A stretch of DNA of 32,682 nucleotides from Candidatus Zambryskiibacteriota bacterium. Lineage in GTDB: Bacteria; Patescibacteriota; Minisyncoccia; Phycocordibacterales; DATGWK01. Below are positions 23,294 through 32,654 of this stretch, piece after piece. Location of the stretch: the NCBI GenBank assembly GCA_023264565.1, contig JAHFLV010000007.1:1-32682 (forward strand), given 5' to 3'. Each line of letters opens with the position of its first letter. Position 1 is the first letter of the stretch. The notes under the pieces were generated by a model that saw nothing but the letters and a program-made list of their open reading frames with translations, was not told where the DNA came from and searched no databases. The translations under genes and the position numbers were made by a program.

Positions 23294-24781
23294 ATGATAT
23301 TTTATAATACTCTCACTAAAAAGCTCGATGTCTTCAAACCTCTCAAAAACACCGATGGTCATGTTCATATGTATCACTGTGGCCCGACAGTCTACAACTT
23401 TGCCCATATCGGCAACCTTCGCTCCTATGTATTTGCCGACACCTTGCGCCGGGCACTAGAACTAGAAACCTACAGCATCAACCAAGTCATTAACATTACC
23501 GACGTTGGTCATCTTACCAACGACACAAGTGATCAAGGTCAAGATAAAGTCGAAGCCGGTGCCAAACGGGAAAACAAAACTGTTCGGGAAATTATTGATT
23601 TTTATACCAAAGCGTTTTTGAGTGATCTCCAAAGTTTAAATGTTCGAACCGAAGGTACAAAATTTCCTAAAGCAACCGATCATATTGATGATCAAATCGA
23701 TCTCATCCGCACACTCGAAGAAAAAGGCTACACCTACACCACTTCTGACGGTGTGTATTTTGATACTGCGAAATTTAGCGATTATGGAAAGCTAGGACAC
23801 ATTGATCTGGCTAATCTCGAAGAAGGTGCTCGAATTGCCAAAAATCCAGAAAAAAGAAGTCCAACAGATTTTGCGTTATGGAAATTTTCTCCAAAACCAA
23901 CGGATAAATCGACCGACGGGAAAATCGAGAACACAACAGTCGCAAAGCGTCAGCAAGAATGGGATTCTCCATGGGGTATTGGTTTTCCAGGTTGGCATAT
24001 CGAATGTTCTGCAATGGCTATGAAATATTTGGGTGAGACTTTTGATATTCATACTGGCGGTATCGACCACATCCCCGTGCATCACAACAACGAAATTGCT
24101 CAGTCTGAAGCCGCAACTGGCAAACAATACGTAAAGTATTGGATGCACAATGAATTCGTAAATATTGAGGGCGACAAAATGTCGAAGTCCAAAGGAAATT
24201 TTATGCGCCTCAAAACGCTTGAGGATGCAAAAATTCATCCGCTGAGTTATCGATACTGGCTGCTTACTGCCCACTATCGCTCCCCTATTATTTTTAGTTT
24301 CGAAGCAGTGCAAGCAGCACAAAATGCTTTTGAAACCGTACTTCTAAAAATTGCTGCTGCTCAACAAAAAGAAAAAGATGTACACGCATCGTTTGCAGTC
24401 GAGGGTCCAGGGAAAAACGAAAAGTTCGCACGAGTAGCCCTTGGTGAGTTTCTCGGTAAAGATCTCGATACTCCAGGTGCTATCGCCTACCTTCATGAAT
24501 TTGTGACTGAGATGGCCGCAGGAAAAAGATCAGTCGAAGAATTAAAATATTTTGATGAAGCCCTTGGCTTGAGGCTTTTGGATTTGGCCTCCTACATGAC
24601 CGAAGTTCCAGAAAAAATTAAGAAATTATCAATGGAACGTGAAAATTTCCGTACGTCAAACAACTGGGCAGAATCCGACAGAATTCGTAAAGAAATCGAA
24701 AATATGGGCTACATAGTGAGCGATACAGCCGCGGGTACCAAAATTCATCGCCCACTTTCTTCGCTCATTGGAGTCCTATAA
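23294..24781 (+). CDS. cysS: Cysteine--tRNA ligase
   Basis: CGPTVY, HIGN, DFALWK, PGWHIECSAM, KMSKS. Confidence 0.98.
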   Translation: MIFYNTLTKKLDVFKPLKNTDGHVHMYHCGPTVYNFAHIGNLRSYVFADTLRRALELETYSINQVINITDVGHLTNDTSDQGQDKVEAGAKRENKTVREIIDFYTKAFLSDLQSLNVRTEGTKFPKATDHIDDQIDLIRTLEEKGYTYTTSDGVYFDTAKFSDYGKLGHIDLANLEEGARIAKNPEKRSPTDFALWKFSPKPTDKSTDGKIENTTVAKRQQEWDSPWGIGFPGWHIECSAMAMKYLGETFDIHTGGIDHIPVHHNNEIAQSEAATGKQYVKYWMHNEFVNIEGDKMSKSKGNFMRLKTLEDAKIHPLSYRYWLLTAHYRSPIIFSFEAVQAAQNAFETVLLKIAAAQQKEKDVHASFAVEGPGKNEKFARVALGEFLGKDLDTPGAIAYLHEFVTEMAAGKRSVEELKYFDEALGLRLLDLASYMTEVPEKIKKLSMERENFRTSNNWAESDRIRKEIENMGYIVSDTAAGTKIHRPLSSLIGVL

Positions 24782-24799
24782 ACAAGTTGCAAACATCCT

Positions 24800-26227
24800 A
24801 TGCAGAAAAACACAACAAACTATTCACCCCGCTCTGCTAGTATGAATGGCATGCAAAACATGCGACCGAACCTGAGAATTCCTCCACAAAATCTCGACGC
24901 GGAGACCGCGCTTTTGGGTTCGATCATGCAGCGCCCTGATGTCATCTACGAAATGGGAGACATCGTCAGCGCCGAATCTTTTTACGCAGAAAAGCATCGT
25001 TTGATTTTTGTCGTCATGATGGAGCTTTTCAAAAGAAGTTCCCCGATCGATCTCCTTTCAGTTTCTGCTCGACTCAAAGAAAAAGGCCAGCTCGAACAAC
25101 TTGGCGGTTCAAGTTATTTGGCCGAACTTGTTCAGGGCGTGCCGTCTTCAACCAACGCACTCTACTACGCTCAGATTGTGCAGAAAAAATACATGATGCG
25201 TCGCCTCATTGAAGCGGCCGAGCATGTTTCAAATTTAGGATACGACGAATCCACCGATATCGAAGAAATTCTTGATCGTGCAGAAAAACACGTTTTCGAC
25301 GTCACCAACTTTTCTACCGCTCATAAATTTATCGAACTCAAAGACGAACTTTCCGAGGCCTGGGAACGTCTCGACAAACTCCACAACACCAAAGAAGGTC
25401 TTCGAGGTGTTCCGACAGGCTTTGCCGAACTCGACGGCAAACTCGCCGGCTTCCAAAAATCCGATCTCATCATCCTTGCCGCTCGACCATCAATGGGAAA
25501 AACTTCCCTTGCGCTCGACATCGCTCGTTATTCTGCAGTCAACCACAACACTCCTGTTGGAATCTTTTCTCTTGAAATGAGTTCACAGCAGCTTGTCGAC
25601 CGTATGCTTGCAGCGCAGTCAAACGTCGACGCTTGGAAACTCCGAACTGGAAAATTGAACCGTGCGGAAGAATTCGAATCAATCCGCCAGTCGCTTGACC
25701 AACTTTCGAAAGCACCAATTTTCATTGACGACCAGCCAGGTAACAACATTTTAAAGATGCGCTCAGTCGCCCGTCGACTCAAAAGCGAAAAAGGTCTTAA
25801 GCTTTTGGTCGTTGATTACCTCCAGCTCATGGTGCCACTTGGTTCAAAAGCCAGTGACAACTTAGTCCAGCAAGTGACCGAAATTTCCCGATCCCTTAAA
25901 AACTTGGCCCGTGAACTCGACGTGCCGGTTCTTGCACTTTCCCAGCTTTCCCGAGCCGTTGAACAACGCGGAGGTCGCCCTCGTCTTTCAGACCTCCGAG
26001 ACTCCGGTTCTATCGAACAGGACGCCGACGTCGTGCTTTTTATTCATCGCGAAGACAAATACAAAGAAGAATCAGAGAAAAATAATATCGCTGAAATTTT
26101 GATTGAAAAGCATCGAAACGGCGAAACCGGCAAGGTTGAACTCTATTTCAATGATAAGAAAGTTACTTTCCAGAGCATGGCTAAGGGCGAATATGGTGGT
26201 GCCGAAAAAGAATTTGCGAACTTCTAA
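24800..26227 (+). CDS. dnaB: Replicative DNA helicase
   Basis: ARPSMGKT, FSLEM, VDYLQL, SDLRDSGSIEQDAD, KHRNG. Exact start uncertain. Confidence 0.98.
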   Translation: MQKNTTNYSPRSASMNGMQNMRPNLRIPPQNLDAETALLGSIMQRPDVIYEMGDIVSAESFYAEKHRLIFVVMMELFKRSSPIDLLSVSARLKEKGQLEQLGGSSYLAELVQGVPSSTNALYYAQIVQKKYMMRRLIEAAEHVSNLGYDESTDIEEILDRAEKHVFDVTNFSTAHKFIELKDELSEAWERLDKLHNTKEGLRGVPTGFAELDGKLAGFQKSDLIILAARPSMGKTSLALDIARYSAVNHNTPVGIFSLEMSSQQLVDRMLAAQSNVDAWKLRTGKLNRAEEFESIRQSLDQLSKAPIFIDDQPGNNILKMRSVARRLKSEKGLKLLVVDYLQLMVPLGSKASDNLVQQVTEISRSLKNLARELDVPVLALSQLSRAVEQRGGRPRLSDLRDSGSIEQDADVVLFIHREDKYKEESEKNNIAEILIEKHRNGETGKVELYFNDKKVTFQSMAKGEYGGAEKEFANF

Positions 26228-26889: not shown

Positions 26890-26918
26890 ACTCAGTTTTA
26901 GTTCATATTAGAGATCTA

Positions 26919-26947
26919 TTGACTTAAGGTAAATTTAATGATACTGT
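26919..26947 (+). promoter_or_regulatory. sigma70 promoter TTGACT-N17-TACTGT (extended TG)
   Basis: -35 at 26919-26924, -10 at 26942-26947. Confidence 0.65.
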
Positions 26948-26981
26948 TTACCCAGAAGCATTTTAAAGAAAGGGGGCTTCG

Positions 26982-27302
26982 ATGTTGAATCAGCTGATGA
27001 GCTATCTACATCCCTTGATCTCAACGATCATTGTGTTTGTAGTTCTCATGGCCATTCTAAGCTATGGTTTCGCCTATATGTTTGGCGGCCAGAGCTACGC
27101 GAATCGTGTTCGCGTGAAGCTCATGGACTTCTTTATCTGGAGTCCACTCAAATGGCTCCGGAGAAAGTTGATCTACGAACCGGCCAAGTATCTCAAGAAA
27201 AAGGCCAAGGCGTGGGCAACCAGTCTACTTCGGTGGGCTGGAAGAGGGATCATGGCATTGCTTCGTCGATTTTGGGTCAAGGTCAGGGCTTGTTGGCCCT
27301 GA
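26982..27302 (+). CDS. Hypothetical membrane protein with basic, Trp-rich C-terminus
   Basis: AAGGGGG SD; N-terminal TM helix; own promoter and terminator. Confidence 0.7.
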   Translation: MLNQLMSYLHPLISTIIVFVVLMAILSYGFAYMFGGQSYANRVRVKLMDFFIWSPLKWLRRKLIYEPAKYLKKKAKAWATSLLRWAGRGIMALLRRFWVKVRACWP

Positions 27303-27311
27303 CCTTTTTTT
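27281..27311 (+). terminator. Intrinsic terminator overlapping the stop codon
   Basis: GGTCAGGGC-TTGTTG-GCCCTGACC-T7. Confidence 0.85.
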
Positions 27312-27312
27312 A

Positions 27313-27341
27313 TTGACTTACATTATTTACTGATTTACAAT
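27313..27341 (+). promoter_or_regulatory. sigma70 promoter TTGACT-N17-TACAAT
   Basis: -35 at 27313-27318, -10 at 27336-27341. Confidence 0.75.
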
Positions 27342-27376
27342 CCTCTTTGGTCATTTTACAAAGAAGGAGGCATTGA

Positions 27377-27544
27377 TTGGCACGAACCAGAAGATCGTTT
27401 AGTCCAAGCAAGGGTGTCGCAAAGGCTCGGAGGTACCAGGAAGACTTGCGGGCATCCCGCGGTTTCCACTGCTCCACTCTTGCTCCACCGACTCATGGAC
27501 CAAGCAGACGGAAGTTTCCTCGCCGACTTGCGGGCACACATTAG
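27377..27544 (+). CDS. 55-aa Arg-rich peptide (MARTRRSFSPSKGVAKARRYQEDLRASRGFHCSTLAPPTHGPSRRKFPRRLAGTH)
   Basis: AAGGAGG 6 nt upstream of TTG 27377; bracketed by a promoter and a terminator; not in the ORF track. Confidence 0.6.
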   Translation: MARTRRSFSPSKGVAKARRYQEDLRASRGFHCSTLAPPTHGPSRRKFPRRLAGTH

Positions 27545-27572
27545 TAACCCCACGTAACTCGACCAACCCCAT

Positions 27573-27600
27573 GCTCACGCGACACCGCGTGAGCTTTTTT
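27573..27600 (+). terminator. Intrinsic terminator
   Basis: GCTCACGCG-ACAC-CGCGTGAGC-T6. Confidence 0.85.
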
Positions 27601-27625
27601 ATTCTCCTAGATCTTTTTATATCTA

Positions 27626-27653
27626 TTGACATATAATTTTAAAATTGTAAAAT
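27626..27653 (+). promoter_or_regulatory. sigma70 promoter TTGACA-N16-TAAAAT
   Basis: -35 at 27626-27631, -10 at 27648-27653. Confidence 0.65.
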
Positions 27654-27712
27654 CTTCCAAGAATTGCTCACTGAAATACTGCTAAACAAAAGAACACAGA
27701 AGGAGGCTCATT

Positions 27713-28600
27713 TTGGAACAGAACGGCGCGGAAAAGAAAAGTCCGCTTATCGGACTCGTTGGAGTAGTAGGAATCTGGGTTACGGCGGGACTCGCCCTGC
27801 CATTTGTAAACGTGCGGAAGGAGTTTACACCCGAACAGCTGATGGTGTTTCGTGGTTTCTTACCTGCCCTGATCGCGTTTGTGTTGCTTCGGGGCAAGAT
27901 CGGTAAGGTGGACAAATACACCTGGTTGATCGGCCTCACACTTCCCCTTGCAACCCTCGGCTTGTTTGAGGGTATTCGCAACTGGGGCGTTGGTCCGACA
28001 TTAATTGTCGTCACGGGGACGCCGGTTGTAAACTTCTTCATTGGAAGATTTCTGAAGAGACCGGTGTCGGATATGACGATCACGAGTCTGATAATCATGA
28101 TTTGCGGAGTTGCTCTCGCCTGCAAGGGCGGACACTTCAACTGGCCGGGGTTCCTCTGGAGCGTCGAGGGAACGATTGCGAACGGTATTCTGTACGAACT
28201 ATTCGCCAGGGCAAAAACCAAGCCGCTACAAAAATGCTTCTTTTCATGCTTCGGCATGGGTGCTCTTGGTCTGCTACTCAGTTTCGCTGATGCCACACCC
28301 TGGGTAGCAGAAACCTTCACCCTACCAATGACCCTTCAATTAGTTACCTTTGCTTTCGTTGGCGGTTTCCTGTACTGGATTGCCAACCAGGCCGCCTTCA
28401 AGCATCTGGAGACTATGCGGGCGAGCGTTCTCGCGCAAGGAGAGACACCCGCGGCAATGATCGGCGCCTACCTTCTGCTCGGAGAAAAACTGAGTATGAA
28501 TCAGTGGGTCGGAACAATCATCGCGCTTGCGGCCGCAGTCTCTTTGGTCTACGCTACAGCCAAAGAAGCAAAAGAACCTGCAGCAGTAGCTACAACATAA
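27713..28600 (+). CDS. EamA/DMT family transporter
   Basis: 10 TM helices, FRG motif, ETPAAMIGAYLLLGEKLS; AAGGAGG SD with TTG start. Confidence 0.88.
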   Translation: MEQNGAEKKSPLIGLVGVVGIWVTAGLALPFVNVRKEFTPEQLMVFRGFLPALIAFVLLRGKIGKVDKYTWLIGLTLPLATLGLFEGIRNWGVGPTLIVVTGTPVVNFFIGRFLKRPVSDMTITSLIIMICGVALACKGGHFNWPGFLWSVEGTIANGILYELFARAKTKPLQKCFFSCFGMGALGLLLSFADATPWVAETFTLPMTLQLVTFAFVGGFLYWIANQAAFKHLETMRASVLAQGETPAAMIGAYLLLGEKLSMNQWVGTIIALAAAVSLVYATAKEAKEPAAVATT

Positions 28601-28611
28601 ACACAACAATG

Positions 28612-28644
28612 TGCCGCCCTGGCTTTCGGGGCGGTTTTCTTTTG
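28612..28644 (+). terminator. Intrinsic terminator of the EamA gene
   Basis: GCCGCCCTG-GCTTT-CGGGGCGGT followed by TTTCTTTT. Confidence 0.75.
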
Positions 28645-28650
28645 TTTACA

Positions 28651-28792
28651 AAAGTCTCCACTCATTTGAAGGAGACTTTCGGAACCCGAGCAATGACCTC
28701 TTTGTGAAGTAAAAGTATGCGAGGGTGAGAGGGAGCAAAAAACCACCGGAAGGTGGTTTTTATGCGTGCTCCTGAAAATGAGTGGAGACTTT
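28651..28792. repeat. Long-arm palindromic element, copy 1
   Basis: 24-bp inverted arms (28651-28674 / 28769-28792), 22/24 complementary, enclosing two hairpins. Confidence 0.8.
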
Positions 28793-29111
28793 ATTTAATC
28801 TTCTCGATCTGAACCTTCATGAATGGCTGTCGGTGACCGTTTTTCTTGAAGTATCGGCTCTTTTGTTTGTATTTGATCACAGTAACCTTTGGAGCTCGGC
28901 CAGCTGATTTGAAAGTGGCTTCAACCTTTGCACCTGAAATGAAAGGTGTGCCGATAGTAGTATTTGAACCGTCATCAACCAAGAGAACCTTGTCGAAAGT
29001 GACCTTATCACCTTCTTTCATATCACCATCAAGCTTCTCAATAGTAATAACATCGCCAGATTTTACCTGGTATTGCTTGCCGCCGGTTTCGATGACTGCG
29101 TATTCGTTCAT
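28791..29111 (-). CDS. rplU: 50S ribosomal protein L21
   Basis: YAVIETGGKQY, IGTPF, GHRQPF. Start moved to the ATG at 29111. Confidence 0.98.
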   Translation of the reverse strand: MNEYAVIETGGKQYQVKSGDVITIEKLDGDMKEGDKVTFDKVLLVDDGSNTTIGTPFISGAKVEATFKSAGRAPKVTVIKYKQKSRYFKKNGHRQPFMKVQIEKIK

Positions 29112-29225
29112 ATCCGGATATTCTACATATATACGGGAAAAATGCAACAAATAGGCCCAATAGAGCCGTTATTTGGGCAAAACACAGTAGATAGCCTGAA
29201 AGGCATCAGAACCCTTGTGTTACCA

Positions 29226-29253
29226 TTGACTTTTTATAAATTAGTGCTATTAT
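29226..29253 (+). promoter_or_regulatory. sigma70 promoter TTGACT-N16-TATTAT (extended TG)
   Basis: -35 at 29226-29231, -10 at 29248-29253. Confidence 0.7.
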
Positions 29254-29328
29254 AAATACAGAAGCTGGTTATGTTTCCAGCCCTGATCCACGAAGGAATC
29301 GTGGAAACTCCATTTGTTGGGAGATGTC

Positions 29329-29400
29329 ATGAACAAGTCTCGAGTCGCGTTCTATGCCTTTCTGGCAATCATGCTCGGCTTCGCTCTGGCCTCGATCTAA
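29329..29400 (+). CDS. 23-aa hydrophobic peptide MNKSRVAFYAFLAIMLGFALASI
   Basis: GGGAG SD 5 nt upstream; structured leader; terminator downstream; not in the ORF track. Confidence 0.6.
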   Translation: MNKSRVAFYAFLAIMLGFALASI

Positions 29401-29423
29401 TCCATCAAACTGAAGATTCGAAC

Positions 29424-29453
29424 ACCGCCCGCACTCTGTGCTGGCGGTTTTTT
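29424..29453 (+). terminator. Intrinsic terminator
   Basis: ACCGCC.GCAC-TCT-GTGC.GGCGGT-TTTTT. Confidence 0.8.
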
Positions 29454-29488
29454 ATTACACACGAACAATCAAATATTATTTAAGAAAG

Positions 29489-29643
29489 AAAAAACCCACC
29501 ATGCTTTGCAGCTAGGTGGGTGTCGACAAGCTAGGTCCTGATGGAACTTATTGTCTGGGTCAGACAGAGAATGTTCGAACGCACTCTCTTTCTCTTACCA
29601 CTTCGGACTTTCATCCGCGTATTGGTTCCCGGACCGCTCGTGT
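29489..29643 (-). ncRNA. Candidate ~155-nt structured sRNA with its own promoter and terminator
   Basis: Promoter TTGACC-N16-TAGGAT (29650-29677); closing stem plus three internal hairpins; terminator ACCCACC/GGTGGGT plus T tract at 29489-29521. Confidence 0.6.
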
Positions 29644-29716
29644 TTGGATATCCTAACTCTTTAATGATTTCGGTCAAGGATTATCCTCGTTTTATTTTTC
29701 TGTTTTTAATCCCTGT

Positions 29717-30823
29717 TTATTCTTCCTGGTCAGTATCGGGTTTTGCGACAATCACAGACTCGAGTCCGGCTGAATTTCCAGCGATTTTCAAAACGTCTTT
29801 ATCAATTTTTAAAAGTTCTTTTTGAGCACGGTTGTAGTGGTTTACCGTTGTACCAAGAGATGAGCCAAGCGACGACATGTATTGGTCGTATGCAGCAATA
29901 TGTTTACCTAAATCCTCTACCCTCTTTCGAATCTCTTTAGCTGATTCTTCGATTTGTAGTGCCTTGAGACCCTGGAGAACGGTCTGGAGATATGCCAAGA
30001 AAGATGTTGGTGAGGTAATGATGACTCGGCGATCTTTGAAGGCGTATTCGATAAGGTCACGAGTATTCACTTTAACCGCACCAACCTGAGCGACCAGAAG
30101 GTCATAATAGATGGCTTCGTGCGGAATAAACATGAACGCAAAGTCCATAGTGTTTTCAGCTGGCTTTACGTACTTTGAAGTTTCATCGATGCGGTTTTTG
30201 AGATCGCGACGAAACGCGGTTTCGAGCTCTTCACGTCGAACTGGATCTTTTTCATCAACTAAACGATTGTAATTTTCGAGAGAAAACTTTGAGTCGATCG
30301 GAATGATTTTATCTTTTACAAAAACCACAGCGTCGACGATCGTGCCATCGTTGAACTCGTACTGCATTTGGTAGCTGCCGGTCGGCATCACGTTCTTCAA
30401 AAGGGTTTCCAAATAGTATTCACCCAAAATACCGCGTTGCTTTGGATTTTTCAAAATGTCCTGCAAAGACTGAAGCTGGTCAGCAAAAGACACAACTTGT
30501 TTGTTTGTTTCGTCGAGCTTAGTGAGCCCCATAGTGACATCGCGAATGAGCTTTGCGGATTCACCGAACTGATTTCGCATCGATTCGTTTTGGTTGCGCA
30601 TTGATTCACTCACCTGTCGGTTGGTCTCGCCCATTTTGGCATCGATAGTTTTTGAAAGTTCGTTAATATGCTGGAGCATGAGTGACATGGCTGGATCTGG
30701 CTTCCCCGCCAATTCATCTTCTGACTTTTTTGCATTACTAAGCCGTTGCATCAAAACCCACAGAAAACCAGCGTTTAATAAAACAATAATTGCGACGATT
30801 ATGATGACAGCGGTAGTAGACAT
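29717..30823 (-). CDS. rmuC: DNA recombination protein RmuC
   Basis: N-terminal TM helix, coiled coil, KQRGILGE, PIDSKF, DFAFMFIPHE, SPTS. Confidence 0.93.
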   Translation of the reverse strand: MSTTAVIIIVAIIVLLNAGFLWVLMQRLSNAKKSEDELAGKPDPAMSLMLQHINELSKTIDAKMGETNRQVSESMRNQNESMRNQFGESAKLIRDVTMGLTKLDETNKQVVSFADQLQSLQDILKNPKQRGILGEYYLETLLKNVMPTGSYQMQYEFNDGTIVDAVVFVKDKIIPIDSKFSLENYNRLVDEKDPVRREELETAFRRDLKNRIDETSKYVKPAENTMDFAFMFIPHEAIYYDLLVAQVGAVKVNTRDLIEYAFKDRRVIITSPTSFLAYLQTVLQGLKALQIEESAKEIRKRVEDLGKHIAAYDQYMSSLGSSLGTTVNHYNRAQKELLKIDKDVLKIAGNSAGLESVIVAKPDTDQEE

Positions 30824-30870
30824 GGGGCAATTATACTACAGGGCGCGGCTTATGATACTATTTTCTCCAT

Positions 30871-31326
30871 ATGACACTTCAAGAAAAAATCAAAAGCGAT
30901 ATGGTTCAGGCAATGAGAGACAAAGACGCTGTAAAGGTTAGCGTTCTTCGCGGTCTTATGGCCAATTTCACAACTGAACTTGTGAATAAAAAGCGAAAGC
31001 CAGATGAAGTATTAAGTGACGAAGAAGTTACGACCGTCATCATGCGAGCTATCAAGCAACGCAAAGACTCAATCGACCAATTCAAAAAAGGTGGTCGCGA
31101 AGATCTTGTGGCTTCTGAAACAGCTGAGCTTGCGGTGATTGAAGGTTTCGCTCCTAAACTCATGTCTCCTGAAGAAATTATGGTATTCGCAAAACAAAAG
31201 AAAGCAGAAATGGATGTTGCTGATAAAACCGGAATGGGCAAACTCATGAGCGCTCTTATGAAAGATCTCAAGGGAAAAGCAGATGGTGCTGATGTTAAAA
31301 CGGCAGTTGAGTCGTTATTCCAATAA
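30871..31326 (+). CDS. yqeY: GatB/YqeY domain protein
   Basis: IKSDMVQAMR, KQRKDSIDQF..GGREDL, MGKLM...KGKADG. Confidence 0.92.
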   Translation: MTLQEKIKSDMVQAMRDKDAVKVSVLRGLMANFTTELVNKKRKPDEVLSDEEVTTVIMRAIKQRKDSIDQFKKGGREDLVASETAELAVIEGFAPKLMSPEEIMVFAKQKKAEMDVADKTGMGKLMSALMKDLKGKADGADVKTAVESLFQ

Positions 31327-31380
31327 CCAACCCTCCAGAAATAACATAAAAAATGCCCGCAAATTAGTGGCTTTTATATA

Positions 31381-31409
31381 TTGACAAATAGCATGAATAG
31401 TGCTATTAT
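31381..31409 (+). promoter_or_regulatory. sigma70 promoter TTGACA-N17-TATTAT (extended TG)
   Basis: Near-consensus elements at 31381-31386 and 31404-31409. Confidence 0.8.
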
Positions 31410-31470
31410 ACAAACAGAAATAACGTCACCGTGTTGGTGACAAAACAGCACTTTTACAGGAGCTAGAAAA

Positions 31471-31893
31471 ATGAATCAGCGTGATTTTGTTAACCGTATC
31501 ATGGGCTTCATGACAGCAATCGTACTCATCGCAATTCTTGCTTTTGTGTTCACCCACATTGGGGGCAAGACCGTCAGCGTGGAGTATGTGAATCTGCCAT
31601 CGGCCCGGGCGTTCAGCCTGCAGGTGCCGACCATCCAGAGCGAGAATGCGGTCTGGGCAACGAACACACCCTTCAAGATGACCTACATCTTCCCAGACAA
31701 GTCGCATGCGATCTACCAGACACCCGACAACCAGCTCGTGGAAACCACGAACAAGCAGGTCATCGACCTGGTCAACCGCAACGAGTACTTCGTCATAAAC
31801 GAAGGGGCGTATCGTGGTCCTCACGGCCTGATGAAGCTCACCGAGCATGACATCGACTTCACCAAGGCCGACTACTACGCCGTCGGCCCGTAA
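31471..31893 (+). CDS. Hypothetical single-TM protein
   Basis: AGGAG SD; N-terminal TM helix; codons visibly C/G-ending compared with neighbours. Confidence 0.75.
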   Translation: MNQRDFVNRIMGFMTAIVLIAILAFVFTHIGGKTVSVEYVNLPSARAFSLQVPTIQSENAVWATNTPFKMTYIFPDKSHAIYQTPDNQLVETTNKQVIDLVNRNEYFVINEGAYRGPHGLMKLTEHDIDFTKADYYAVGP

Positions 31894-31917
31894 ACTCGAA
31901 CGATATCGAGTACACCA

Positions 31918-31947
31918 AACACCTTGCGATAGCGCGGGGTGTTTTTT
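31918..31947 (+). terminator. Intrinsic terminator
   Basis: AACACCTTGCG-ATAG-CGCGGGGTGTT-TTTT. Confidence 0.8.
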
Positions 31948-31970
31948 ATTTCTAAAATTTCCTGAGATTC

Positions 31971-32401
31971 CTACAACTTTTGTGCCGTAATAAAAAGCTT
32001 ATTAAAAGGAAATTCCATCCCACTTTTTGGTTCCCGTCTTTCAACTCTCATTATTCGAAAACCCGCATTCTCCAAATATTTTCTAATTTCAGCTTCAGTA
32101 AATAAATTAATGAACATTTTTACTTCCGGTTTATATACAACAGAAAAATATCCATCTCGATCCATTGACGTAATTGGTTCTTGTAATGCAAGGTATGCGT
32201 AGCCACCAATTTAAGCACCCGAGCAATTCCTTCAACCGACATCGTCACATCTTTTTCCGGAATATGAATCAGAGAATAATTTGCAAAAACACCATCAAAA
32301 CTTTTATCTGGGAAATCCAATTTGCGTAAATCCATTTGAATCATTTTGAGGTCGGGGTGTTGCAAACTACAGCCTCTTTTCTGGCTTTCTGAAAACTTCA
32401 A
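31971..32401 (-). pseudogene. Truncated, frameshifted class I SAM-dependent methyltransferase
   Basis: MDLRKLDFPDKSFDGVFANYSLIH...ARVLK continues in another frame as GGYAYLALQEP (1-nt deletion near 32210); N-terminal GxGxG motif absent. Confidence 0.8.
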
Positions 32402-32420
32402 AACAATGAAAGACTTCGAG

Positions 32421-32492
32421 TGACCCTACGGGGAATCGAACCCCGCTTTGGAGCTTGAGAAGCTCCCGTCCTAGCCGATAGACGATAGGGCC
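32421..32492 (-). tRNA. tRNA-Glu (anticodon CTC); CCA not encoded
   Basis: GGCCCTA acceptor/TAGGGTC-A, anticodon arm GGAGC-TTCTCAA-GCTCC, T arm GGGG-TTCGATT-CCCC. Confidence 0.97.
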
Positions 32493-32514
32493 ATAGTACT
32501 ACGCACAGAACATA

Positions 32515-32543
32515 AACTTACCTCAAAAGTAGCTTGATTTCAA
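32515..32543 (-). promoter_or_regulatory. Probable tRNA promoter TTGAAA-N17-TAAGTT
   Basis: -35 at 32538-32543, -10 at 32515-32520. Confidence 0.45.
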
Positions 32544-32654
32544 ACAAAGATAAGACATTTGAGAAATGAGTTTCCGGAGGCGCGTAGGCGCCGAGAGTAG
32601 CGAAAACCCAGCAGGGTTTATCGCGCTCATTTCGAGAATGTCTTATCTTTGTTT
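32542..32654. repeat. Long-arm palindromic element, copy 2
   Basis: 29-bp inverted arms (32542-32570 / 32626-32654), 26/29 complementary, enclosing two hairpins. Confidence 0.8.

Follow-up and report, generated by a model that had tools for sequence, protein, structure and literature searches.

The window analysed here, a stretch of 32,682 nucleotides (nt) from a Candidatus Zambryskiibacteriota bacterium (assembly GCA_023264565.1, contig JAHFLV010000007.1), carries two copies of a palindromic element near its 3' end, and both belong to a dispersed family of structured repeats. Copy 1 (28651-28792, c1 in the numbering of copies used below) lies between convergent genes, 51 nt past an EamA-type gene (27713-28600), and overlaps the stop codon of rplU (28791-29150, minus strand) by 2 nt. 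Copy 2 (32542-32654) is 50 nt away from a tRNA-Glu gene of the opposite strand, and 28 nt separate it from the end of the contig. Both palindromic stretches were read in the sequence exactly as an initial annotation had them, and the plan which it had described as common to the two was recovered with the same order of parts, as shown in Table 1. In copy 1, a perfect outer stem (P1) of 17 base pairs (bp) is followed by GA opposite GA, a second stem (P2) of 5 bp, CTTTC-GGA, a long hairpin 1, GAGAG-GGA, hairpin 2, GTG and the return strands. Copy 2 repeats this order with a P1 of 19 bp, GA/GA, a P2 of 8 bp and a short hairpin 1 (GGCGC-GTAG-GCGCC). The GA/GA mismatch in the long stem of both copies was present as annotated; P1 of copy 1 is otherwise perfect, and the innermost P1 pair of copy 2, the last before the loop, is U.G. 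P1 and P2 together give 22-27 bp in the two copies, a duplex of about two turns formed by the ends of the element. RNA folding of the plus strand gave -66.7 kcal/mol (z -8.5) for copy 1 and -59.4 kcal/mol (z -11.1) for copy 2, which none of 200 shuffles equalled, and the minus strand folded more weakly (-59.4 and -53.5 kcal/mol, respectively).

Table 1. Parts of the two copies and neighbouring features, in window coordinates.
Feature	Position	Strand	Remarks
Copy 1, whole element, subtype A (long hairpin 1)	28651..28792	+	covariance model R2 140 bits, R3 76 bits
Copy 1, P1 5' arm	28651..28667	+	partner 28776-28792, 17 bp perfect; locus-unique, no second match in genome
Copy 1, loop GA, P2 5' strand AGGAG, unpaired A	28668..28675	+	GA faces 28774-28775; P2 28670-28674 pairs with 28769-28773
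Copy 1, conserved junction CTTTC-GGA	28676..28683	+	proposed partner GAGAG 28727-28731; weak covariation support
Copy 1, hairpin 1, ACCC-GA-GCA...TGC-GA-GGGT, long form	28684..28726	+	internal tandem G.A; stem covaries
Copy 1, conserved purine junction GAGAG-GGA	28727..28734	+	
Copy 1, hairpin 2 (28735-28765), GCA-AAAAACCACC-GGAA-GGTGGTTTTT-A-TGC, then GTG	28735..28768	+	bulged A
Copy 1, P2 3' strand, GA loop, P1 3' arm	28769..28792	+	last 2 bases within rplU stop codon
Copy 2, whole element, subtype B (short hairpin 1)	32542..32654	+	R3 72 bits
Copy 2, P1 5' arm	32542..32560	+	partner 32636-32654, 19 bp, innermost U.G
Copy 2, GA loop, P2 5' strand GAAATGAG, TTTC-CGGA, hairpin 1 GGCGC-GTAG-GCGCC, GAGA-GTA	32561..32599	+	
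Copy 2, hairpin 2 GCGA-AAACCC-AGCA-GGGTTT-A-TCGC, G, P2 3' strand CTCATTTC, GA loop	32600..32635	+	
Terminator-like hairpin of EamA-type gene	28613..28635	+	15 nt upstream of copy 1; context, outside the element
tRNA-Glu(CTC)	32420..32492	-	neighbour of copy 2, context

The count of two copies proved too low. An inner-core pattern found two more in the genome of the window (G000; 580 kb in 48 contigs, 43.7% G+C), BLAST found nine, and covariance models found at least 14. The family unit is a structured hairpin repeat of 85-160 nt, dispersed and multi-copy. In G000 it occurs as subtype A, with a long hairpin 1 (seven copies, copy 1 among them), subtype B (three, copy 2 among them) and subtype C (four copies and one degenerate half copy). 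The seven subtype A cores were 91-94% alike among the BLAST matches listed. When the copies were aligned with their flanks, the likeness began at P2 and ended at P2', and the outer arms had nothing in common, yet each was paired with its own partner over 14-26 bp. Across the family, the closing stem P1 measures 9-26 bp and is locus-specific in sequence. The letters CATTT...RAATG beside the loop, which had been annotated as part of the shared core, are a chance likeness of the two window copies and no family feature, since the loop-side stem of other copies reads CACTC, TTGTT, GTTT, CTTT and the like. The internal loop is made of purines in several forms (GA/GA, GAA/GAA, AGA/GAA and GGA/GGA).

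The strict motif CATTTGA...GARAATG was rejected as a family signature, as it matched only the two given copies in the genome. The looser CATTTGA-N5-9-TTTC-N0-1-GGA was also rejected; it matched in 42 of 301 genomes of the order, a reversed control matched as well, and among 30 loci examined only the single locus of G000 itself held the element. An exact 22-letter subtype A pattern gave no match in genome, viral and metagenome contig collections. A single-sequence model built on copy 2 (R1) was dropped after giving copy 1 just 17.5 bits, and a MAFFT alignment of copies 1 and 2 alone was misaligned and was not used. In one intergenic space of contig C4 of G000, two members of different subtypes occupy opposite strands, with a gap of about 10 nt between their neighbouring 5' ends (25279-25401, minus; 25411-25560, plus). 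A mechanically called open reading frame (ORF) at 24244-25374 enters the first of them, and its listed start is probably wrong.

The fold consists of P1, the symmetric purine internal loop, the short P2 and a three-way junction bearing hairpin 1 and hairpin 2, with the conserved junction letters CUCUC-GGA, GAGAG-GGAGC and UUUAUGCG-UG. Over the whole order, the junction letters CU..CG.AG, GAG.GAGC and UUUA.GCGUG were kept while the stems changed. Covariation was examined in two alignments. The first (A7), a structure-free MAFFT alignment of six subtype A copies and one copy from another genus, had 92.8% of its cells paired compared with 35-55% in slid controls, and 21 of 39 pairs had changed on both sides, which was reached by 0 of 500 shuffles. 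The second (A8), in which 29 copies from four genomes were aligned to the model, had 95.2% of its cells paired (slid controls 42-50%) and both-side changes in 32 of 39 pairs. Covariation was seen in four helices, namely P1, P2, hairpin 1 and hairpin 2, the last with both-side changes in 12 of its 13 pairs in A8. Such covariation, above all shuffles and slid controls, supported the selected single-strand fold with a three-way junction that the initial annotation had suggested. The further helix between CTTTC and GAGAG, implied by the shared core, gained little covariation support from either alignment. As CUCUC/GAGAG it showed both-side changes in 0 of 5 pairs in A7, with G.G at the middle pair in 4 of 7 sequences, and in 3 of 5 pairs in A8, amounting to 5 cells in total.

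Folding of the plus strand had also been expected to be favoured, and this agreed with the counts of non-Watson-Crick pairs. In the helices, G.U occurred 65 times versus 11 for A.C, in cells that are not independent and in alignments that lean towards the model. All 29 full-length model matches (29/29) lay on a single strand of their locus. The G.U excess and the one-strand matches together indicate that the plus strand, as RNA or as single-stranded DNA (ssDNA), is the one kept foldable.

Further copies in other Patescibacteria, which the annotation had asked for, were found in number by covariance model. Model R3 detected the family in 10 of 10 genomes of the same taxonomic family (14, 6, 9, 7, 17, 9, 10, 15, 40 and 9 copies), in 55 of the 151 genomes sampled from the order (E<=1e-5, strict filters), and in 6 of 151 genomes of a phylum-wide sample, G000 counted. 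The matches run to hundreds, with E down to 1e-25, and a carrier genome holds between 1 and 40 copies, the highest number in a genome of 800 kb. Among named records, a degenerate pattern drew 110 stretches, 80 of which were taken as loci, and R3 confirmed 21 of these 80. Twenty of the confirmed loci carried Patescibacteria-type labels and one was labelled only 'bacterium'; the labels included Paceibacteria, Parcubacteria, Vogel-, Nomura-, Taylor- and Adlerbacteria, Patescibacteria group and Saccharibacteria. None of the 58 named-record loci from other phyla was confirmed by R3. As far as searched, the family appears to be confined to Paceibacteria-type Patescibacteria. In another family of the order, one locus (L009, G213:C1, about locus positions 1501-1610) holds a long, perfectly paired hairpin of related layout, with a stem, TTTC-GGA-G... 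and two inner hairpins.

The Rfam comparison proposed with the annotation returned no family. With Rfam 15, tRNA-Glu alone passed its gathering threshold in the whole window, and permissive scans (E up to 10) around copy 1, copy 2 and one subtype C copy gave at best 18, 15 and 14 bits against thresholds of 55-114. No description of such repeats was found in the portions consulted of the literature on repeats and RNA motifs of Patescibacteria and the candidate phyla radiation, and a preprint on tRNA mimics, in the part consulted, concerns other families. The family is absent from the RNA family catalogue and was previously uncatalogued.

All 14 copies of G000 are intergenic. Three subtype C copies lie inside stable-RNA units and on the same strand as these. 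One of them (C21:3129-3221) ends 4 nt before tRNA-Thr, downstream of a promoter-like TTGAAA-17-TATCAT, and a like arrangement is present in the congener G256. Another (C24:4018-4110) is placed 9 nt before tRNA-Phe within a tRNA array, again as in G256, and the third (C25:623-711) is in the 23S-5S rRNA spacer. An Rfam group I intron was seen within the 23S rRNA gene upstream of this spacer copy (L088, 1325-1598). Copies c4 and c5 flank efp, and c9 lies between two same-strand ORFs that were recognised as S7 and EF-G by eye from their translated ends, with no family search run; rplU and efp were identified by family search or alignment.

Around copy 1, relatives of the same genus and the same family have recR convergent with rplU and a plain terminator between them. 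The recR-rplU gap of G000 (window 26890-28650 and copy 1) holds about 1.9 kb extra, comprising an ORF of 106 amino acids (aa) without Pfam match, the EamA-type transporter gene, the terminator-like hairpin and copy 1. Near copy 2, a 93 aa ORF (window 32120-32401, minus strand) is similar to SAM methyltransferase domains in their second half alone (profile 42-88 of 95) and may be a gene fragment beside tRNA-Glu. Logan contigs of two DNA runs break in hairpin 2 of copy 1 (end at 28739, restart at 28749), and neither run showed a joint across either copy, so that the runs say nothing on polymorphism. In this organism, short-read assemblies seem to be broken up by the repeat.

The turnover of the family was best seen between two carrier genomes, G188 and G306, whose aligned flanks, with their intergenic DNA, share about 85-90% identity. 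One orthologous site held the same element in both, 95% identical, and two others kept flanks, P1 and P2 around clearly different cores. Three sites were occupied in G188 and not in G306. Upstream of efp, G306 keeps only the 3' arm sequence (9 of 12 letters) together with an upstream motif; beside tRNA-Met, it has a perfect 24 nt palindrome of different sequence; and the last site lacks two elements. One element occurred at non-orthologous sites in the two genomes with a core 97% identical and identical arms, and four copies of G188 were 99-100% identical, sharing their arms and an upstream motif of about 45 nt. Cores were more alike inside one genome than across orthologous sites.

Subtype A-like copies of G303 are 75-78% identical to those of G000 and occur at other sites with arms of their own; the unique arms of such copies in G303 and G304 measure about 16-20 bp. 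At one shared site, G000 retains a half copy in the opposite orientation, and upstream of efp a subtype B copy in sense orientation in G303 and G305 corresponds to a subtype A copy in antisense orientation in G000. Subtype A and B copies of G000 have unique arms, and recent copies of G188, G256 and G306 share theirs. The arms of c4 and c1 take in the stop codon of the neighbouring gene. The site comparisons indicated that elements had been gained, lost and moved with their arms, and that cores had been replaced. Homology-driven conversion seems unlikely as the source of the unique arms of subtype A, because the similarity ends at the 4-5 bp P2.

The presence/absence differences, together with the element whose identical arms recur at non-orthologous sites, gave weight to the annotation's option of a mobile element. 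Its proposal to read empty orthologous sites was successful only in part: no clean empty site could be read for copy 1, and sites without the element were read in the G188/G306 pair. The c3 site was rejected for this comparison, the same-genus genomes being 20-30% diverged in coding DNA and unalignable in intergenic DNA. By reading, not by a formal test, no consistent direct repeat was seen as a target-site duplication beside 9 copies of G000 or beside the identical-arm pair of G188 and G306. In G188, G256 and G306, a motif ATTGTATT/ATTGCATT followed by a C/T-rich run ending in CCA stands just 5' of many copies (for example L068, L083-L086 and G188 C9:4120-4230). It is also present at two element-free sites of G306 and absent in G000; a promoter, a target and a piece of some longer unit are all possible readings of it. 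A G306 stretch (C20:8200-9700) is 100% identical to G188 C3:2583-3856 over more than 1.1 kb, and the true G306 orthologue is 86% identical; this contig probably comes from a G188-like strain and was placed in the G306 bin. In G188, the matching sequence between the flanks is masked (N).

A co-occurring HUH/RAYT or reverse transcriptase gene had been suggested as a partner of the element, and neither was supported. Y1 HUH transposase (PF01797) was over the cut-off in 0 of 10 carrier genomes, with one sub-threshold match in G304 and positive results in 6 of 14 controls. Reverse transcriptase (PF00078) had no match in G000 and was present in 4 of the 10 carriers. TROVE/Ro (PF05731) had no match in G000, a genome of 92% completeness. 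No dedicated transposase was found by a search which covered Y1 HUH and reverse transcriptase, not integron integrase, Xer or DDE families. An RNase III gene is present in G000 (C15:6282-6668, 130 bits).

Our tentative reading is that the family is a structured repeat at the RNA level which spreads in the manner of a non-autonomous element, and that P1 is likely an RNase III or stability stem; we place the probability of this reading slightly below even. Most copies would be transcribed, being made as an RNA module inside host transcripts, most clearly in the tRNA operon leaders and the 23S-5S spacer. The long, nearly perfect P1 duplex could then function as an RNase III-type processing stem or as a stem protecting the 3' and 5' ends, and the three-way junction may be a site of protein contact or tertiary contact. 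The family also multiplies and turns over as a non-autonomous mobile element does, with cores exchanged between loci. The RNA reading was favoured because a branched fold with a conserved junction is typical of structured RNAs, because the places of some copies in tRNA and rRNA precursors are conserved between species, and because no DNA enzyme was found in the searches made.

Several observations weigh against this reading. Orientation is not fixed, and between co-directional neighbours in G000 and G188 there were 12 sense and 7 antisense copies. Six copies (c1, c3, c4, c5, c7 and c8) abut the stop codon of an opposite-strand gene, so that host read-through would yield their complement; the wobbles of these copies still favour the plus strand. 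No sigma-70-like promoter precedes copy 1 or copy 2, and a terminator-like hairpin does precede copy 1. G.T wobbles are compatible with folded ssDNA as much as with RNA, and the fast turnover argues against an essential function at most sites. The sequences UUUGAGAA / CAUUUCGAGAA resemble the boxA antitermination sequence; a boxA-like reading is a poor fit with copies in both orientations and was set aside. A bolder form of the RNA reading, which we think unlikely, would make the family a new structured-RNA class whose conserved three-way junction is possibly catalytic or the handle of an RNA-binding protein. Such a class would spread through some of the smallest genomes of any bacteria without a dedicated transposase, have a stem of free sequence at each site and swap cores from one resident stem to another. 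It would amount to a system of RNA/DNA cassettes that can be excised and exchanged with host enzymes alone.

In a first alternative, set at the DNA level, the element would be a non-autonomous mobile element acting as folded ssDNA in the manner of REP/REPIN, IS200/IS605 ends or attC, the fold being the target of a structure-specific recombinase and any RNA a by-product. This appears somewhat unlikely to us, and it is the alternative we take most seriously. Multiple copies with fast gain and loss, the identical-arm element at non-orthologous sites, both orientations relative to transcription, with the core reversed between species at two orthologous sites, and a bias for G.T over A.C that suits ssDNA too all speak for it. 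They are opposed by the negative Y1 HUH search in the ten carriers (integron integrase, Xer and DDE not searched), by the three-way junction and its conserved unpaired purines, where REP, attC and IS608 ends have simple hairpins, by some copies that hold conserved places in tRNA and rRNA units across species, and by the flanks read, which show no target-site duplication. The annotation had also offered the option that inverted copying of the flanking target at insertion makes a new perfect P1 at each site. As a general rule this failed: an element has moved together with its arms, the arms are common to four identical copies of G188, and different cores lie between the same arms at two sites. 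For the unique arms of subtype A it is possible, and over the family as a whole we consider it very unlikely. The closely alike subtype A cores of G000, with arms unmatched elsewhere in the genome and similarity ending at the loop, would fit such copying, as would the unique arms of G303 and G304, the lone 3' arm sequence at the efp site of G306 and the stop codons within the arms of c4 and c1. The efp site may instead be a deletion product, as it retains the upstream motif that usually travels with elements, and the other 'empty' site, beside tRNA-Met, holds a palindrome of a different sequence.

The copies could also be independent small RNA genes, protein-binding RNAs or a new class of self-cleaving ribozyme, with their own promoters and with paralogues homogenised by gene conversion. 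Junction nucleotides conserved over an order while stems vary are the usual signature of tertiary-structured RNAs, a preference for the plus strand persists at copies whose neighbours would transcribe its complement, cores are more alike within a genome than across orthologous sites, and the pyrimidine-rich motif ATTGTATT... precedes many copies in G188, G256 and G306. That motif is absent in G000 and present at element-free sites, however, and no promoter-like site stands before copy 1 or 2. Copy numbers from 1 to 40 and quickly changing sites, the lack of a match to any known ribozyme or small RNA family and the lack of a Ro/TROVE partner in G000 also count against this explanation, which we judge to be decidedly unlikely. 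Chance palindromes or ordinary bidirectional terminators are left with a negligible probability. Hairpin 2 of copy 1 does resemble a lone plain terminator hairpin in G188 (96% over 26 nt), and copy 1 does lie between convergent genes, but no shuffle among 200 folded as well, four helices covary, and the model matches hundreds of loci and none of the 58 from other phyla; these matches, the covariation and the other-phyla null refuted it.

The 0.5-1 Mb genomes of Patescibacteria are generally considered poor in selfish or regulatory baggage. Here, a single uncatalogued structured element reaches up to 40 copies in an 800 kb genome and is present in about one third of the sampled genomes of its order. 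As copies are located beside translation genes (rplU and efp, and S7-EF-G by eye) and within the precursors of tRNAs and rRNAs, the family may bear on RNA processing and stabilisation. It is also a practical marker in these metagenome-assembled genomes and, it seems, a cause of assembly breaks in them.

Among known systems, REP/REPIN elements are simple GC-rich hairpins of 20-40 nt whose GTAG-type head is conserved and which require a Y1 HUH RAYT gene. The present family resembles REP, BIME and REPIN in being intergenic, multi-copy and palindromic, with a fold on one strand and compensatory changes between copies; REPs are, besides, often present in the ends of mRNAs. It differs in its length of 85-160 nt, its branching, its locus-variable closing stem and the absence of Y1 HUH over the cut-off in ten carriers. 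Membership in REP/REPIN was rejected, there being neither a RAYT over the cut-off nor a short simple hairpin with a conserved head, and so was an IS200/IS605-derived palindrome element, as no TnpA (Y1 HUH) was over the cut-off and the ends, the P1 arms, differ between copies. Integron attC sites carry R''/R' boxes that are conserved at the base of the stem; they have extrahelical bases, lack a three-way junction and form arrays after attI. The elements here share with them a structure conserved above sequence, a variable size and a folded single strand, the form in which attC sites are recognised; their arms are without a common R''/R'-type box at the outer P1 ends, and the copies are dispersed, not arrayed (integrase not searched). 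Retron msr/msd was rejected on the missing reverse transcriptase of G000, and bacterial Y RNA on its missing Ro/Rsr (TROVE) match.

RNase III stems flank rRNAs and also occur in 23S intervening sequences; each operon has a single copy, which encloses an rRNA or a simple loop. In both cases a long duplex is formed from the two ends of an excisable segment in stable-RNA precursors, and its sequence is free as long as it pairs; in the present family, the stem encloses a conserved junction module of 60-110 nt, in 1-40 dispersed copies per genome. G000 has the RNase III gene and the end duplex of about two turns that an RNase III-processed repeat calls for, and cleavage of the repeat is a prediction from these. 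With hammerhead, twister, hatchet and pistol ribozymes, the family shares a three-way junction, conserved junction letters, variable stems and a dispersed multi-copy occurrence; no Rfam ribozyme model matched at E up to 10, and the hammerhead core letters were absent from both strands by reading.

Correia/NEMIS elements of Neisseria and ERIC/IRU elements of enterobacteria are 100-150 nt in length and form long hairpins in transcripts, which affect mRNA stability and, in Correia, are cut by RNase III. Like them, the present elements would form long transcript hairpins of similar size and are inserted in either orientation. In Correia/NEMIS and ERIC/IRU the terminal inverted repeats are conserved, a TA duplication is present and there is no conserved branched core; here the outer stem is variable and the inner junction conserved. 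Of the classical features of miniature inverted-repeat transposable elements, common arms were found in the recent copies of G188, G256 and G306 and unique ones in the subtype A and B copies of G000, with no target-site duplication by reading. On this comparison, REP/BIME, Correia and ERIC elements are the closest in kind; what sets the family apart from them is the three-way junction, the closing stem of variable sequence and the lack of a transposase in the searches made. A conserved branched core inside free closing stems, with cores exchanged and no transposase found, is unlike the textbook bacterial repeats and makes the family a concrete system for asking how small repeats move.

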